Assembly: GCA_017471445.1 (NCBI GenBank)
Contig: JAFUTJ010000008.1
Location: 1-46,381 of the forward strand
Origin: Alphaproteobacteria bacterium
GTDB taxonomy: Bacteria; Pseudomonadota; Alphaproteobacteria; Rs-D84
Reading direction: 5' to 3'
DNA: 46,381 bases
Both the position numbers and the translations under genes were made by a program. Shown piece by piece: positions 1 through 46,381 of this stretch; within the stretch, counting starts at the first letter, position 1, and every line of letters begins with the position of its first letter. The notes under the pieces were generated by a model. It had not been told where the DNA came from. It worked only from the letters and a program-made list of their open reading frames with translations, and did no database searches.

Positions 1-105
1 CCACCGTTTTTTTGTGCACGGGTAAAGGAAAATAAAATGGCGGATTTCTGGGGTTTTGTAAAAACAATTTGTGCACCAAAAAAACGGTGGTTTTTTGGTG
101 CACGG
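1..105. mobile_element. Putative invertible translation-start cassette, copy 1 (left site cut by window edge)
   Basis: Core CCACCG at 1-6 and inverted core CGGTGG at 85-90, 78 bp apart; + strand AAAGGA RBS and ATG at 37 reading MADFWGFVKTICAPKKRWFFGAR; near-identical to 22664-22768 and 41339-41443; target gene would lie left of the window. Confidence 0.75.
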
Positions 106-168: not shown

Positions 169-966
169 CTAATTCACCGGCACTAATTTCCCACCCTGCC
201 CACGTGTGGCGTTAATCCAGCACACGCTGCCACCGCGTGGTACGGCCATGGCGTATTTTGTGTGCTTTCCCGCATATATATTTATTCCGTTCATTGCGGT
301 GTCACCAATCCGACACAGTGGCAAACACCGGTCATCGGATGTATGACCATACCCCGCATCACATTCCCATGGGCAATCGCCAACATCCGGTGTGCCGGGA
401 CCGGTATAGTACGCATCTGCCGGTGCATTTGTACATTTTCTTAATATGGTTGAATAATACTGATTTACTACATTTGCCACGTAATAACCGGCAAATGCCC
501 GTCTGTATAAAACCCGTTGAAATTTCGTATAGCCACCCGTACTCAGATTATAATAAAAAGATATGGCGTAAGTATGTGCTTCGTCGTAAATAACATCCCG
601 AACAACATAGCCACAGTCTGTTACGGCGATAATGTTCCGGCCCGCCGTAAAATAATAGGTTTCAACCTCGGCTTTCATTTTACTATAATCTGGGTTGGTA
701 AGGGGGACATATTGCGATATCAGGGTCTTAATTTGTTCTGTGGACATATTTTGTTCGGGACATGCGTGTCGTGCATCATCGCCCGGACAATAATATTTAT
801 CAGAACATTCCGTGCAAGAACCGGTATCATCCAACCAATATCCCTTGGCACACGTTGCGGCATGGGCCGTGCCGACAGCACATGCAACAATCAGTACCCA
901 AATACCCAACGCCAAATCAACCGAATGGCGCGATATAAACGGTCGAATCACAAACAATGCTGTCAT
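169..966 (-). CDS. Secreted Cys-rich variable protein, paralog A (265 aa, own RBS, no cassette)
   Basis: AAAAAGGGAAAAAAG-ATG at 966; signal peptide ending VGTAHA; YCPGDD motif; conserved C-terminus CTNAP...CPWECDAGYGHTSDDRCLPLCRIG...GGKLVPVN. Confidence 0.85.
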   Translation of the reverse strand: MTALFVIRPFISRHSVDLALGIWVLIVACAVGTAHAATCAKGYWLDDTGSCTECSDKYYCPGDDARHACPEQNMSTEQIKTLISQYVPLTNPDYSKMKAEVETYYFTAGRNIIAVTDCGYVVRDVIYDEAHTYAISFYYNLSTGGYTKFQRVLYRRAFAGYYVANVVNQYYSTILRKCTNAPADAYYTGPGTPDVGDCPWECDAGYGHTSDDRCLPLCRIGDTAMNGINIYAGKHTKYAMAVPRGGSVCWINATRGQGGKLVPVN

Positions 967-21937: not shown

Positions 21938-22669
21938 CTAATTCACCGGGAACAATTTGCCGCCATCACCGCGTTTTGCACTAATCCAACACGTCGCGCC
22001 ATTACGCGGAACGGCCATGGCGTATTTAGTATGCTTTTCCGCATATATATTTATACCATTCATTGCCGTGTCGCCAATCCGACACAATGGCAAACACCGG
22101 TCGTCGGATGTGTGGCCGAATCCATCATCACATTCCCACGGGCAATCGCCAACATCCGGTGTGCCCGCACCGGTATAGTGCGCATTTGTCGGCGCATTTG
22201 TGCATGGATTTACGTTTTTATAATTCGTGGTACCAGGCTTGTTCAGATTTGATACGTAGTAACCAGTTTGTGCAGCAGAACACAGACCGTTATAGTTTAC
22301 AACCGTATAATCTGATGATTCCATGGAATAGCCTAACACAATATACCTATCCGCGCATGTATCATCTTGCGCCTGACGTACACGCAGACCACACGCCATT
22401 ATTGATGTTGGGCCAACAGAAGCGTATGTTGATGTTTTTTTCAACATATTGTAATCTGAAATATTCGGTATCAAATTCAGAACATCCGACTTGGTCAAAT
22501 TGGTTTCTGGACATTCATAACTTAAATCATCCCCCGGACAGTAATATGACGAGATACAATTTGTACATTCACCATTGTTCATGTATTGCCCCGCGTCGCA
22601 TGTTGCGGCGCGGGCATTGGTTAAAATGCACATGCCAAACATCACACCCCATGCACAAAAAAACCACCG
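21938..22669 (-). CDS. Secreted Cys-rich variable protein, paralog B; start codon supplied only by inverted cassette (259 aa when ON)
   Basis: Fixed part begins RWFFCAWGVMFGMCILTNARA-ATC; YCPGDD; conserved C-terminus; no RBS+start facing the gene in this orientation. Confidence 0.85.
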   Translation of the reverse strand, partial: RWFFCAWGVMFGMCILTNARAATCDAGQYMNNGECTNCISSYYCPGDDLSYECPETNLTKSDVLNLIPNISDYNMLKKTSTYASVGPTSIMACGLRVRQAQDDTCADRYIVLGYSMESSDYTVVNYNGLCSAAQTGYYVSNLNKPGTTNYKNVNPCTNAPTNAHYTGAGTPDVGDCPWECDDGFGHTSDDRCLPLCRIGDTAMNGINIYAEKHTKYAMAVPRNGATCWISAKRGDGGKLFPVN

Positions 22670-22768
22670 TTTTTTTGTGCACAGGTAAAGGAAAATAAAA
22701 TGGCGGATTTCTGGGGTTTTGTAAAAACAATTTGTGCACCAAAAAAACGGTGGTTTTTTGGTGCACGG
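22652..22768. mobile_element. Putative invertible translation-start cassette, copy 2 (OFF orientation)
   Basis: Left site TGCACAAAAAAA-CCACCG-TTTTTTTGTGCA (perfect 12-6-12 palindrome, 22652-22681); right site 22734-22766 with inverted core; RBS+ATG at 22700 on + strand. Confidence 0.8.
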
Positions 22769-40573: not shown

Positions 40574-41344
40574 CTAATTCACCGGAACTAATTTCCCGCC
40601 GATGTCGCGTATGGCACTAATCCAACACATACCATCGCCGCGTGGAACGGCCATGGCATATTTTGTGTGCTTTTCGGCGTATATATTTATACCGTTCATT
40701 GCGGTTTCACCAATCCGGCACAGCGGCAAACACCGGTCGTCGGATGTGTGACCGAATCCATCATCGCATTCCCACGGGCAATCGTTCGCGTTCTTAATCG
40801 TACCATCCGGGCTGTCCGGTGTGCCGGGACCGGTATAGTGCGCGTTTGCCGGTGCGTTGGTGCATGGCTTTACGCCATTGTACCAAACCTTATACGTGGT
40901 ACCCATATATGGCGACAGATAATAACCGGTTCCCGCCGCATAATAGTGTGTGCATTTAACGGGGTATTCTTGGCTGGTTGGGTCGTATGCAACCTCTGAC
41001 AGGCAACTATAATTCTTAGTATAAAAATATGCACTGCGATGACAACAGGTTATCCTGTCACGCTCGTAATACGTTGTGCCATTATATACAAATTGCGTCC
41101 GCCAAGAATTGATCCATACTTCGCCGACTGTAAAAGTATCATCAAAAAACTGTTCATATTTTCCCGCCCATTTATCTTCGGGACATTCGTATTGTGCGTC
41201 ATCGCCCGGACAATAAGATGTTTTGCCGCAATATGTACATTCGTTTTTAGAATTCAGATAAAAATTTGCCGGACAATTTGCGGCATGGGCATTGGTTAAA
41301 ATGCACATGCCAAACACCACACCCCGTGCACCAAAAAACCACCG
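40574..41344 (-). CDS. Secreted Cys-rich variable protein, paralog C; start codon supplied only by inverted cassette (272 aa when ON)
   Basis: Fixed part begins RWFFGARGVVFGMCILTNAHA-ANC; YCPGDD; conserved C-terminus. Confidence 0.85.
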   Translation of the reverse strand, partial: RWFFGARGVVFGMCILTNAHAANCPANFYLNSKNECTYCGKTSYCPGDDAQYECPEDKWAGKYEQFFDDTFTVGEVWINSWRTQFVYNGTTYYERDRITCCHRSAYFYTKNYSCLSEVAYDPTSQEYPVKCTHYYAAGTGYYLSPYMGTTYKVWYNGVKPCTNAPANAHYTGPGTPDSPDGTIKNANDCPWECDDGFGHTSDDRCLPLCRIGETAMNGINIYAEKHTKYAMAVPRGDGMCWISAIRDIGGKLVPVN

Positions 41345-41443
41345 TTTTTTTGTGCACGGATAAAGGAAAATAAAATGGCGGATTTCTGGGGTTTTGTAAA
41401 AACAATTTGTGCACCAAAAAAACGGTGGTTTTTTGGTGCACGG
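41324..41443. mobile_element. Putative invertible translation-start cassette, copy 3 (OFF orientation)
   Basis: Perfect 29-bp inverted repeat 41324-41352 / 41415-41443; RBS AAAGGA and ATG at 41375 on + strand. Confidence 0.82.
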
Positions 41444-41465
41444 CTTATTTCCCTGTACGCCACGC

Positions 41466-41494
41466 ATTGTAACATGTTCGGCGATTTTTTTCAA
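41466..41494 (-). promoter_or_regulatory. sigma70-like promoter upstream of cassette copy 3
   Basis: Minus strand TTGAAA-17 bp-TACAAT with extended -10 TG. Confidence 0.8.
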
Positions 41495-41543
41495 TATGTT
41501 TTTTATTAATTTTAATTTGATTTATTATTTCATAAAACTGTGC

Positions 41544-41569
41544 AAAAAAAACGCGGCGATGCCGCGTTT
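41544..41569 (-). terminator. rlpA terminator
   Basis: CGCGGC/GCCGCG stem followed by T8 on minus strand. Confidence 0.75.
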
Positions 41570-41585
41570 GATTATGATTTGATTT

Positions 41586-42476
41586 TTAAATGCTGTCTGC
41601 GTTAATCCACCGGCCATTTTGTAACAATCCCGGTGCCATGCCTTCGTTCGCGCGCAGCGAATCAATCACACGACGTGCATTGGATGCATCCAGGTTAATT
41701 ATACGCACCTTGTACATATCACCTTCGCGAACAACGGTCGCATTACCATATTGGCGCATTTTTGATACCAATGAATTCGCACTATCTTCGGCATAGAATG
41801 CCGCAACCTGAACACTGTAATCACCACCGACCGATGTCGTAACCGGCGTTGGTTCCGGCGCAGGCGCATACGTTACCGCGGGCGTTTCATCCACAGACGG
41901 CTGAACCGGTACCGTACCCATTGTCGCATTTTTCACCGCAATAGACTGGTCGCGCAGAACCTGAACCTGAACCTTGGATTGACCATTAATGCCAATTGCC
42001 CGCGCCGCCGCGGGTGACAAATCCATAATACGCGTATTTACAAAAGGCCCACGATTATTTACACGAACAACCGCAGATTGCCCATTGTCCAGATTTGTAA
42101 CCCGCGCAATTGTGGGTAATGGTAATGTCTTGCTGGTTGCGACCATTTGATTAACATCAAACGTTTCGCCGTTACTGGTCTTGGTACCATTCAGTTCGGT
42201 CGGAATTATACCCGCAACGCCGGTTTGATTATAAGACAAATCTTCCATTGGGATGTATTGAACATCTTCGACTTTGTACGCACTGCCGATATAATACTTT
42301 GGTGCCGCCGCCATCAGGTACGCGTCATTTAACACCGCGCCGCCATTATCGGTCGTAACAAGTGTTTCTTCGCCAAAACCGTCGGTGCCATAGCCCGCAT
42401 TGGTTGTGGTGTTTGTGCCCTGTTGACAACCGGCCAAGACCGCCGTCAAAACCGCCAATGAAACAATTTTTTTCAT
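41586..42476 (-). CDS. rlpA: Septal ring lytic transglycosylase RlpA with SPOR domain
   Basis: Lipobox LAGC, TSNGETFD, TLPLPT, VRVNNRGPF, MDLS, C-terminal VQVAAF. Confidence 0.9.
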   Translation of the reverse strand: MKKIVSLAVLTAVLAGCQQGTNTTTNAGYGTDGFGEETLVTTDNGGAVLNDAYLMAAAPKYYIGSAYKVEDVQYIPMEDLSYNQTGVAGIIPTELNGTKTSNGETFDVNQMVATSKTLPLPTIARVTNLDNGQSAVVRVNNRGPFVNTRIMDLSPAAARAIGINGQSKVQVQVLRDQSIAVKNATMGTVPVQPSVDETPAVTYAPAPEPTPVTTSVGGDYSVQVAAFYAEDSANSLVSKMRQYGNATVVREGDMYKVRIINLDASNARRVIDSLRANEGMAPGLLQNGRWINADSI

Positions 42477-45627: not shown

Positions 45628-46381
45628 CTAATTCACCGGGACCAATTTACCGCCCTGCCCTTTTTCTGCACTAATCCAACACGTTGCGCCACCGCGTGGT
45701 ACGGCCATGGCGTATTTGGTATGCTTTTCGGCGTATATGTTTATACCGTTCATTGCGGTTTCACCAATCCGGCATAACGGTAAACACCGGTCGTCGGATG
45801 TATGACCGAATCCATCATCACATTCCCATTCACAATTTGGTGTGCCATCGGTTGTATTTGCGGCGGTATAGTGTGCATTTGCCGGCGCGTTTGTGCATGG
45901 CATGCAATCTGATGCCGCGGCGGCGGTGTCCGTTGCCGTATATGTGCCCGCCGGGCATGCGGTATGTTCAACATCATTTGCACCAACATAAAAACCGAAA
46001 CCTGCCGCAATACAAATATCATGCGCCAATAACAGGTTTAAGTTCGCAAACTGAATATTCCAAGATGTTGGTTGTTTGCCCGTTACATTTGCATAATAGC
46101 CCGCATCACACTTGGTTAAATTATATTTGTACTGGCAATTGGTACCGCCAATATATTCCCCATTTAACACACCACAGTTATATGTTGTTATTCCGTGCGC
46201 AATCGGGACATCTGCAAATGTGGCACGGCAATATTTTGCCGCGGTAATAACATCAATGCTTGTATTAATGTAATATTGCTGAAAATAAATATAGTGTGGA
46301 TTAGATGTTGTAACAATTGGACATAGGTGCCGCGTATCATCGCCAGGGCAATAAAAATTGTAATTCTGTGATATATCGGCC
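45628..46381 (-). CDS. Secreted Cys-rich variable protein, paralog D (5' end beyond window)
   Basis: Frame stays open to the edge (...ADISQNYNFYCPGDDTRHLCP...); extra CPAGTY...C repeat; conserved C-terminus. Confidence 0.85.
   Translation of the reverse strand, partial: ADISQNYNFYCPGDDTRHLCPIVTTSNPHYIYFQQYYINTSIDVITAAKYCRATFADVPIAHGITTYNCGVLNGEYIGGTNCQYKYNLTKCDAGYYANVTGKQPTSWNIQFANLNLLLAHDICIAAGFGFYVGANDVEHTACPAGTYTATDTAAAASDCMPCTNAPANAHYTAANTTDGTPNCEWECDDGFGHTSDDRCLPLCRIGETAMNGINIYAEKHTKYAMAVPRGGATCWISAEKGQGGKLVPVN

Follow-up and report, generated by a model that had tools for sequence, protein, structure and literature searches.

A cassette carrying a ribosome-binding site and start codon as a probable inversion switch of secreted-protein genes in an Alphaproteobacteria genome

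How can a gene without a start codon of its own be translated when the nearest ribosome-binding site (RBS) and start codon point away from it? This question is raised by a locus in a 46,381-nucleotide stretch of DNA (hereafter the window), which comprises the first 46,381 bases of contig C19 (JAFUTJ010000008.1) of an Alphaproteobacteria bacterium (GCA_017471445.1; genome G000, 910,822 bp in 23 contigs, 43% G+C, 88% complete). At this locus, a 120-bp cassette between inverted repeats (41324..41443) separates a fixed promoter from a start-less, minus-strand gene body, and carries a Shine-Dalgarno (SD) sequence and start codon that face the promoter. Promoter flipping is the usual reading of DNA-inversion phase variation, and both inverton finders and annotators are designed with it in mind. 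Inversion switching itself is known; here, the flipped unit is the translation start and the promoter is fixed. In our judgement the locus is very probably one copy of a multi-locus site-specific inversion switch that acts on the translation start and leaves promoter and gene body in place.

Anatomy of the cassette

A repeat search revealed that the cassette is bounded by an inverted repeat (41324-41352 / 41415-41443) of 29 nt with 100% complementarity, the arms of which lie 62 nt apart. No perfect inverted repeat with a gap of 10-150 nt in the window is longer, and the longest inverted repeat across 100 first-order Markov simulations of the window measured 15 nt. Both this search and direct reading bore out the preliminary description of the locus, according to which a perfect 29-bp repeat brackets AAAGGA-N7-ATG. 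Specifically, the SD sequence AAAGGA (41362..41367, plus strand) lies 7 nt ahead of the ATG at 41375-41377, and comparable SD sites of the AAGGGA type were found before groEL and before paralog A. The plus-strand reading from this ATG (41375..41443) consists of the start codon and 22 further codons, MADFWGFVKTICAPKKRWFFGAR, and finishes exactly at 41443, the outer edge of the right arm. It corresponds to the N-terminal part of a leader, and native proteins from loci in which the cassette faces the gene start alike. The plus-strand open reading frame (ORF) as a whole (41375-41509) extends into the promoter; it has no alternative partner ORF, and there is one cassette per gene, so that no exchange of alternative coding segments, as in shufflons or gene-altering inversions, was found at this locus.

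The gene body (40574..41323, minus strand) encodes the last 14 leader residues GVVFGMCILTNAHA and a Cys-rich mature protein of 235 residues, and ends in a stop codon. No SD sequence or start codon is present near the leader in this frame; further upstream, the sole ATG in frame overlaps the –10 box. Across the left arm the frame reads KKRWFFGAR, and it then continues as GVVFGMCILTNAHA, followed by ANC at the start of the mature protein. A crossover in the repeats had been proposed to yield an in-frame leader, and in silico inversion of the cassette indeed restored the frame.

The promoter, of the sigma70 type (TTGAAA-17-TACAAT with a TG before the –10 box; 41466..41494, minus strand; 10/12 matches in the scan), is located outside the cassette. 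Between it and the promoter-side repeat lies a fixed 5′ leader (41444..41465, minus strand), whose junction with the cassette, AAATAAG/CCGTGCAC, is common to loci with the start codon facing the gene (referred to as ON) and loci with the start codon facing the promoter (OFF). At an ON locus, the promoter TTGCCA-17-TATGAT occupies the equivalent position outside the cassette, in line with the earlier claim that the promoter is fixed. At none of the loci of this type (class 1), OFF or ON, does the invertible segment itself contain the promoter.

In the mechanism that we propose, the cassette would supply the only SD sequence, ATG and first 23 codons of a 37-residue secretion leader, held between inverted sites. 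With the cassette facing the gene, translation would run through the gene-side site, giving the KKRWFF part of the leader, and would yield the complete secreted, Cys-rich protein. With the cassette facing the promoter, as here, the mRNA would lack an RBS and start codon before the gene and would carry an early leader hairpin with a T tract. A single trans-acting recombinase would invert the loci reversibly and independently of one another, so that ~20 surface proteins could vary in combination.

ON and OFF copies in one genome

The 120-bp segment is present ~24 times in the 910,822-bp genome, and every copy was oriented by its start codon. A blastn comparison of the promoter-cassette-gene stretch with the genome revealed four loci at which the flanks aligned one way (74–77% identity) and the cassette the other way (93–96% identity), the reversed stretch being query positions 78-197, exactly the 120-bp cassette. 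If the switch were real, paralogs starting with MADFWGF had been expected, and four loci of the same genome proved to carry contiguous ORFs of this kind with a reversed cassette. Native examples are the uninterrupted ORFs L012:252-1226 (324 aa) and L013:218-1039 (273 aa), and full-length ON forms are also found among public proteins (P0019, P0069 and P0071, 267 aa; P0079, 273 aa; P0089, 273 aa).

With both flanks present, four loci are ON, with the promoter to the left and the gene to the right (C1:43365, C2:1757, C15:3270 and C15:20694), and 11 are OFF (C2:38490, C3:37573, C9:16596, C13:6676, C16:8015, C19:22649, C19:41324, which is the locus studied here, C19:46504, C19:184932, C20:19444 and C23:8546). 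Six further copies are fragments at contig ends, all with OFF-type junctions (C11:1, C12:1, C13:1, C16:13117, C18:1 and C19:1). Both junction types thus co-occur in one genome among paralogous loci, that is, between loci and not within one. The two orientations can be compared most closely at ON C1:43365 and OFF C13:6676, which are 98.1% identical across 269 nt of the gene and 95% identical across the 80 nt upstream, but carry the cassette in opposite orientations. Every locus keeps its own conserved promoter beside the cassette, and an expression site built as one shared block was not found.

In silico inversion of the OFF cassettes was in frame at 11/11 full loci, although these loci are paralogs and the counts are therefore not independent. 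After inversion, complete intact ORFs of 230–335 aa were obtained at eight of the 11, and the other three run off contig ends. An insertion resembling a miniature inverted-repeat transposable element was considered and ruled out, as no start codon other than that of the cassette is available, and it occupies an identical codon position at every locus.

Recombination sites and the point of exchange

Each repeat arm belongs to a larger palindromic site of 33–36 bp. The promoter-side site (41408..41443, including the arm 41415-41443) has palindromic arms GTGCACCAAAAAA and the centre CGGTGG, and the gene-side site (41324..41359, including the arm 41324-41352) has the centre CCACCG and encodes part of the leader, KKRWFFGAR, in its minus-strand outer half. 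The site arms are 13 nt long, GTGCAC(C/A)AAAAAA, and enclose a centre that is asymmetric (CCACCG or the complement), and the two sites are in inverted orientation with their centres 84 bp apart.

A genome-wide search with the 16-nt core AAAAACCACCGTTTTT, allowing up to 2 mismatches, yielded 47 matches, including 43 true sites. Of these 43, 42 have the exact core, whereas cassette interiors differ by 2–7%. At complete loci all site pairs are convergent, and none of the sites is solitary or in direct orientation. The centres are 83–84 bp apart in 16 complete class-1 pairs, 95 bp apart in two pairs of a second class and 85 bp apart in one pair of a third. Because these spacings (83–85 and 95 bp) correspond to ~8 and 9 helical turns, they suggest that synapsis over so short a loop is constrained by helical phasing.

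The half-sites were compared at 13 of 15 loci with parsable sites, ON and OFF together. Regardless of state, the promoter-side outer half was CCGTGCACC in 12/13 loci and the gene-side outer half CCATGCAC in 10/13; the SD-side inner half was GTGCACA in 12/13 and the coding-side inner half GTGCACC in 10/13. The promoter-side junction always reads AAATAAG/CCGTGCAC, and the gene-side junction GTGCA(C/T)GG/GGTGTGG. Outer halves are accordingly tied to the flanks and inner halves move with the cassette, which, from the sequence comparison, places strand exchange in or beside the invariant 6-bp centre CCACCG, as conservative site-specific recombination would give.

A comparable arrangement in a second species

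Relatives of this bacterium are labelled Candidatus Enterousia, a genus of the order Rs-D84 with genomes of ~0.75–1.0 Mb from animal guts (PMC12306168). The protein family encoded at the locus is present in 17 of 100 other genomes of the genus. In a second species (G045), a fixed promoter (TTGTCA-17-TATAAT) is separated from the family genes by an 87-bp cassette; its repeat, of 19 nt, is unlike that found here, and its spacer measures 49 nt. Among 19 distinct G045 cassettes, six place an SD sequence, a TTG start codon and 12 additional codons before the gene, and 13 are reversed. In seven of the 13 reversed cassettes (L080-L085 and L091), the promoter-adjacent repeat is degenerate, with its TATGCCTAA part replaced; judging from these repeats, they may be locked copies.

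A search with the G045 cassette detected related elements in 14 other genomes out of 150 of the genus. All nine inspected loci of these relatives hold SD-ATG cassettes (with an MQKSGIF-like sense reading) that face away from the gene, a sample biased towards OFF because the G045 query was itself OFF-oriented. A scan of metagenome contigs yielded four distant relatives and none of this species.

We lean towards a genus-wide system of these reduced-genome gut Alphaproteobacteria, in which one recombinase would serve ~20 independent translation-start cassettes with 84-bp spacing, each cassette would provide the SD sequence, the start codon and the beginning of a signal peptide, the recombination site would double as the basic n-region of the leader, and promoter cassettes would be included too. 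If so, it would provide combinatorial control of the surface coat for a ~1-Mb genome through invertons that are among the shortest known, with whole-helical-turn spacing (84 and 95 bp).

Switching, fixation or misassembly

Switching of the loci is suggested by the paralogs, the conservation of the sites and the preserved frames, and a number of observations weigh against it. Firstly, no locus was found in both orientations, either in the contigs of four runs from one study or in other public assemblies. Moreover, at seven loci the state is identical in all other public assemblies in which they occur, although these assemblies may be related samples and not independent ones: the studied locus (C) is OFF in the 3 other contigs carrying it (P0002, P0064), locus B is OFF (P0081, 4 contigs), the C23 locus OFF (P0082, 4 contigs), the C1-type locus ON (P0019, P0069, P0071), the C13-type locus OFF (P0070, P0072), C15:20694 ON (P0079) and C15:3270 ON (P0089, 3 contigs). 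The proteins P0069 (ON) and P0072 (an OFF read-through call) are identical throughout their mature sequence, but differ in codons of the gene-side outer half-site, and thus represent different loci or alleles rather than the two states of one locus. Furthermore, 84 bp is very short for synapsis between crossover sites, and the arms can pair in RNA in both orientations (–73.7 and –73.5 kcal/mol, z –5.5 and –7.2). None of the candidate recombinase genes in the genome adjoins a cassette, and small serine and Xer-like recombinase genes are present in all five other genomes of the genus that were checked, whether a cassette was detected or not. Finally, an ATG within the G045 repeat could start a normal leader in either state, such that the switch there may only modulate expression, quantitatively rather than in an all-or-none manner.

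The constancy of state would be expected if the loci were relics of past inversion or insertion, each now fixed, with the OFF copies serving as a silent archive for recombination between family members. Such a relic would also fit the mosaic members of the family, such as P0076 and P0079, which have the same mature N-terminus behind different leaders, and the lack of a strand-change joint among the listed contig joints at the locus, where the contigs break at the repeat. However, relics are hard to reconcile with a core that is exact in 42/43 sites next to interiors that have diverged, with frames that are kept at all 11 full OFF loci (eight of them complete ORFs), or with sites that are never solitary or direct. 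Near-identical gene pairs in opposite states (C1:43365/C13:6676 and P0069/P0072) and the repetition of the ON/OFF mixture in a second species with different repeats likewise speak against fixation, which we therefore regard as improbable.

The palindromic, repeated sites could also have misled the assembly, yielding wrong cassette orientations or wrongly joined flanks. Seven contig ends indeed lie inside cassettes, and over 40600-42200 the public run contigs are fragmentary at the repeat, the unique-flank contig beginning at 41444. Nevertheless, junctions of both the ON and the OFF type extend through the whole site into unique sequence on either side, and separate public assemblies again contain ON forms, on contigs that differ in length. 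The independent genome of another species also displays the same pattern. Misassembly as the source of the pattern is accordingly most unlikely, and a translation-start switch remains our preferred reading.

How the OFF orientation would silence the gene

Judging from the sequence ahead of the gene body, we infer that the OFF state is silent mainly because an SD sequence and start codon are absent there. The scan also flagged a terminator-like element (41399..41441, minus strand, which is the sense strand of the gene) with a 13-bp stem, a 7-nt loop and the tail AAATTGTTTT. The element lies on the sense strand at the OFF locus and on the antisense strand at the ON locus. With this hairpin and T tract in the OFF leader, silencing may not be purely translational, and the predicted hairpin may add to the OFF state. 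The original interpretation of the locus as a translational ON/OFF switch, here OFF, is supported as far as the flipped start codon is concerned, but is to be qualified with regard to how the gene is silenced.

The switch could even be mainly transcriptional, as in cwpV, with the OFF hairpin and T-rich tract terminating the transcript and the loss of the start codon being secondary. The flagging of the 13-bp stem and AAATTGTTTT on the sense strand in OFF only would suit this explanation. However, the stem is A/U-rich and is set off from the T tract by three A residues, so that the terminator would be weak, and transcripts reading through it would still not be translated since the gene body has no SD sequence or start codon of its own. 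Termination and start-codon loss are, moreover, compatible mechanisms, and we give little credence to a switch that is mainly transcriptional.

Recombinase candidates

The recombinases encoded by the genome comprise two tyrosine enzymes of the Xer-like kind (316 and 303 aa), an integrase of the phage type (406 aa) and, among the serine recombinases, four small intact ones (198–241 aa, with Resolvase and an HTH domain in three), two partial or broken copies of these, and two larger ones. Candidates for the switch are the two Xer-like genes, the integrase gene at C19:85042 and small serine recombinase genes at C3:113946, C19:74879, C9:35675 and C6:63411. The nine Resolvase-domain matches (contigs C3, C6, C9 and C19), of which five or six are small and closely related, are unusually many for a 0.9-Mb genome. 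The genome-wide site search revealed no solitary recombination site beside any recombinase gene.

The 13+6+13 layout of the site fits the core site of a tyrosine recombinase. The succession of an A-tract, CC, two central bases and a mirrored T-tract would fit the crossover pattern of the Hin/Gin type equally well, and several small serine recombinases with Resolvase and HTH_7 domains are present here, as would suit that type. The hix repeats of 14 bp comprise one half-site plus the centre, like the repeat of the second species. Unlike in the Hin/Gin systems, no enhancer was identified here and the invertible segment is about ten times shorter. The compact sites of 33–36 bp with 84-bp spacing are of interest as a minimal recombinase substrate.

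Relation to known inversion systems

The closest match in layout is cwpV of Clostridioides difficile, in which a 195-bp invertible segment lies between a fixed promoter and a surface-protein gene (Emerson et al. 2009, PMC2784873). For cwpV, the OFF transcript was proposed to contain a terminator; inversion depends on a trans-acting recombinase, and the invertible leader holds no ORF (PMC2784873). The locus described here shares the fixed upstream promoter and the short invertible segment between promoter and gene, but differs in that the cassette holds the SD sequence, the start codon and 23 codons, one site lying within coding sequence. An invertible region devoid of any ORF part was thus not found here; moreover, cwpV is a single locus, as opposed to ~20 here.

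In Mycoplasma penetrans, the 38 mpl (P35) genes each have their own short invertible promoter (Horino et al. 2003, 2009; PMC2268961, PMC3047005), and they switch independently through short repeats and a trans-acting recombinase working on dispersed loci (PMC2268961, PMC3047005). A reduced genome, a large family and an own short invertible element per gene are common to both systems, whereas in ours the promoter is fixed and the translation start flips, with two loci using the same sites around a promoter. The vsa genes of Mycoplasma pulmonis and mba/UU172 of Ureaplasma involve inverted DNA that includes the RBS and the 5′ coding region with the signal peptide, as here, where a recombination site also lies within coding sequence. 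In vsa and mba, however, a single block of promoter, RBS and 5′ region is moved between silent genes and one gene is on at once (PMC2268961, PMC3047005 for both statements). Each gene in our genome has its own promoter and its own 120-bp cassette, so that the states are independent.

Gene-altering inversions and shufflons keep the upstream part of a gene, swap downstream parts and are significantly longer than other invertons (Milman 2023, PMC9881135), and 'partial intergenic invertons' have been catalogued but handled as shufflons (Chanin 2023, PMC10028968). As in these, one repeat here lies inside the coding sequence and the other outside; unlike in gene-altering inversions, nothing is exchanged and the upstream part is turned on or off. 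No precedent for an inverton limited to an RBS and start codon was found in the open full-text literature, although the supplements of PMC10028968 and PMC9881135 may list similar cases. In the one Enterousia genome paper that was searched, neither 'invert' nor 'phase varia' occurs.

With such a system, a gut bacterium that is uncultured and has a ~1-Mb genome would possess ~20 independently switchable secreted proteins, a parallel to mycoplasma antigenic variation in an unrelated Gram-negative lineage. This hints at surface variation selected through close contact with the host or with other cells.

The secreted protein families

Read by eye, the leader consists of a basic KKR, a hydrophobic stretch and AHA/A, and we infer from this a predicted Sec-type secretion leader of 37 residues. 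The public proteins P0079 (cassette-type leader) and P0076 (ordinary leader) are joined to their shared mature N-terminus at the same residue, which supports cleavage after the A-x-A motif. As the preliminary description had stated, paralog A (169..966, minus strand) is unswitched: it has its own fixed SD sequence and start codon (AAGGGA-N6-ATG), a 36-residue leader and no cassette.

The Cys-rich family includes the genes at 169-966, 21938-22648, 40574-41323 and 45628-46380, with at least 27 matches genome-wide. Its members share an N-terminal module (C..G.Y...G.C..C..G.YCPGDD), a hypervariable middle and a C-terminal module ending in GGKLVPVN. They are mosaic, have cassette-type or ordinary leaders, and often lie in tandem with the next promoter directly after the stop codon. 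None of the five family proteins searched had a match in Pfam or NCBIfam. Foldseek comparison of an AlphaFold2 model (mean pLDDT, the predicted local distance difference test, of 74.9) with the PDB gave no match at E<=0.001, with weak rows for cysteine-rich domains of the TNFR type; protein Atlas scores were at most 0.80, TNFR_ELAPOR1 and Ephrin_rec_like being no more than leads. The leader, the conserved cysteine framework and the hypervariable middle agree with the earlier designation as a surface-protein family and would suit a putative surface location, which is deduced from these features.

A second, unrelated secreted family, with the mature start ELPENVKFCIPKQYT and no Pfam or NCBIfam match, uses the same cassette at C2:1757, C15:3270, C9:16596, C16:8015, C12:1 and C13:1.

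Since the flipped unit is the translation start, gene callers mis-annotate every OFF gene. Public calls of OFF genes (P0002, P0063 and P0064) either read through from an ATG or TTG further upstream, within the promoter region, or begin with an internal Met (MFGMCILT...), and the ON gene P0065 was also called from an internal Met. Public annotations of this Cys-rich family thus have wrong N-termini.

Other cassette classes and neighbouring features

The same sites also flank other interiors. The two class-2 cassettes (C10:3498-3626, L130, and C18:18083-18210, L131) have them 95 bp apart around a sigma70-like promoter, TTGGAA-17-TAAAAT with a TG, and are the only ones to carry a promoter within the invertible segment. 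The C10 cassette is located between two divergent genes, each with its own leader, and looks like a classical either/or promoter inverton under the same system. A class-3 cassette (C21:26874-26991) has a third interior, encodes a leader starting MQKTKVV and faces its gene; its gene-side centre is mutated, and is the only inexact core among the 43 sites.

At the centre of the cassette studied here (41371-41392) lies the core motif AAAAT-N4-GATTTCTG, with relatives at L019-L033. The motif is common to cassette lineages that code on opposite strands, the MADFWGF type here and the MQKSGIF type in G045 and others, and also forms the spacer of the class-2 promoter. No whole copy of the MADFWGF-type cassette was found in 40 relatives, only the 24-nt core motif in 13 of 24 same-genus genomes, which carry one or two copies of AAAAATGGCGGATTTCTGCGGTTTTT outside coding sequence. 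In eight loci, the surroundings of this motif contained no repeats, and Rfam gave no match. An accessory or DNA-bending protein may bind to the motif.

Three further cassettes concern the window. A second complete one (22649..22768) lies before the minus-strand gene 21938-22648 and is OFF. A third (1..105) is cut by the contig start and has an OFF-type junction to its promoter at 106-167. The fourth family gene (45628..46380, minus strand) has its cassette just past the window, at contig position 46504-46623, likewise OFF. Upstream of the studied locus, a bidirectional GC-rich hairpin (41549-41569) lies between rlpA (41586-42476, minus strand) and the promoter of the family gene. This hairpin probably terminates rlpA, in which case the switch would be insulated from upstream transcription.

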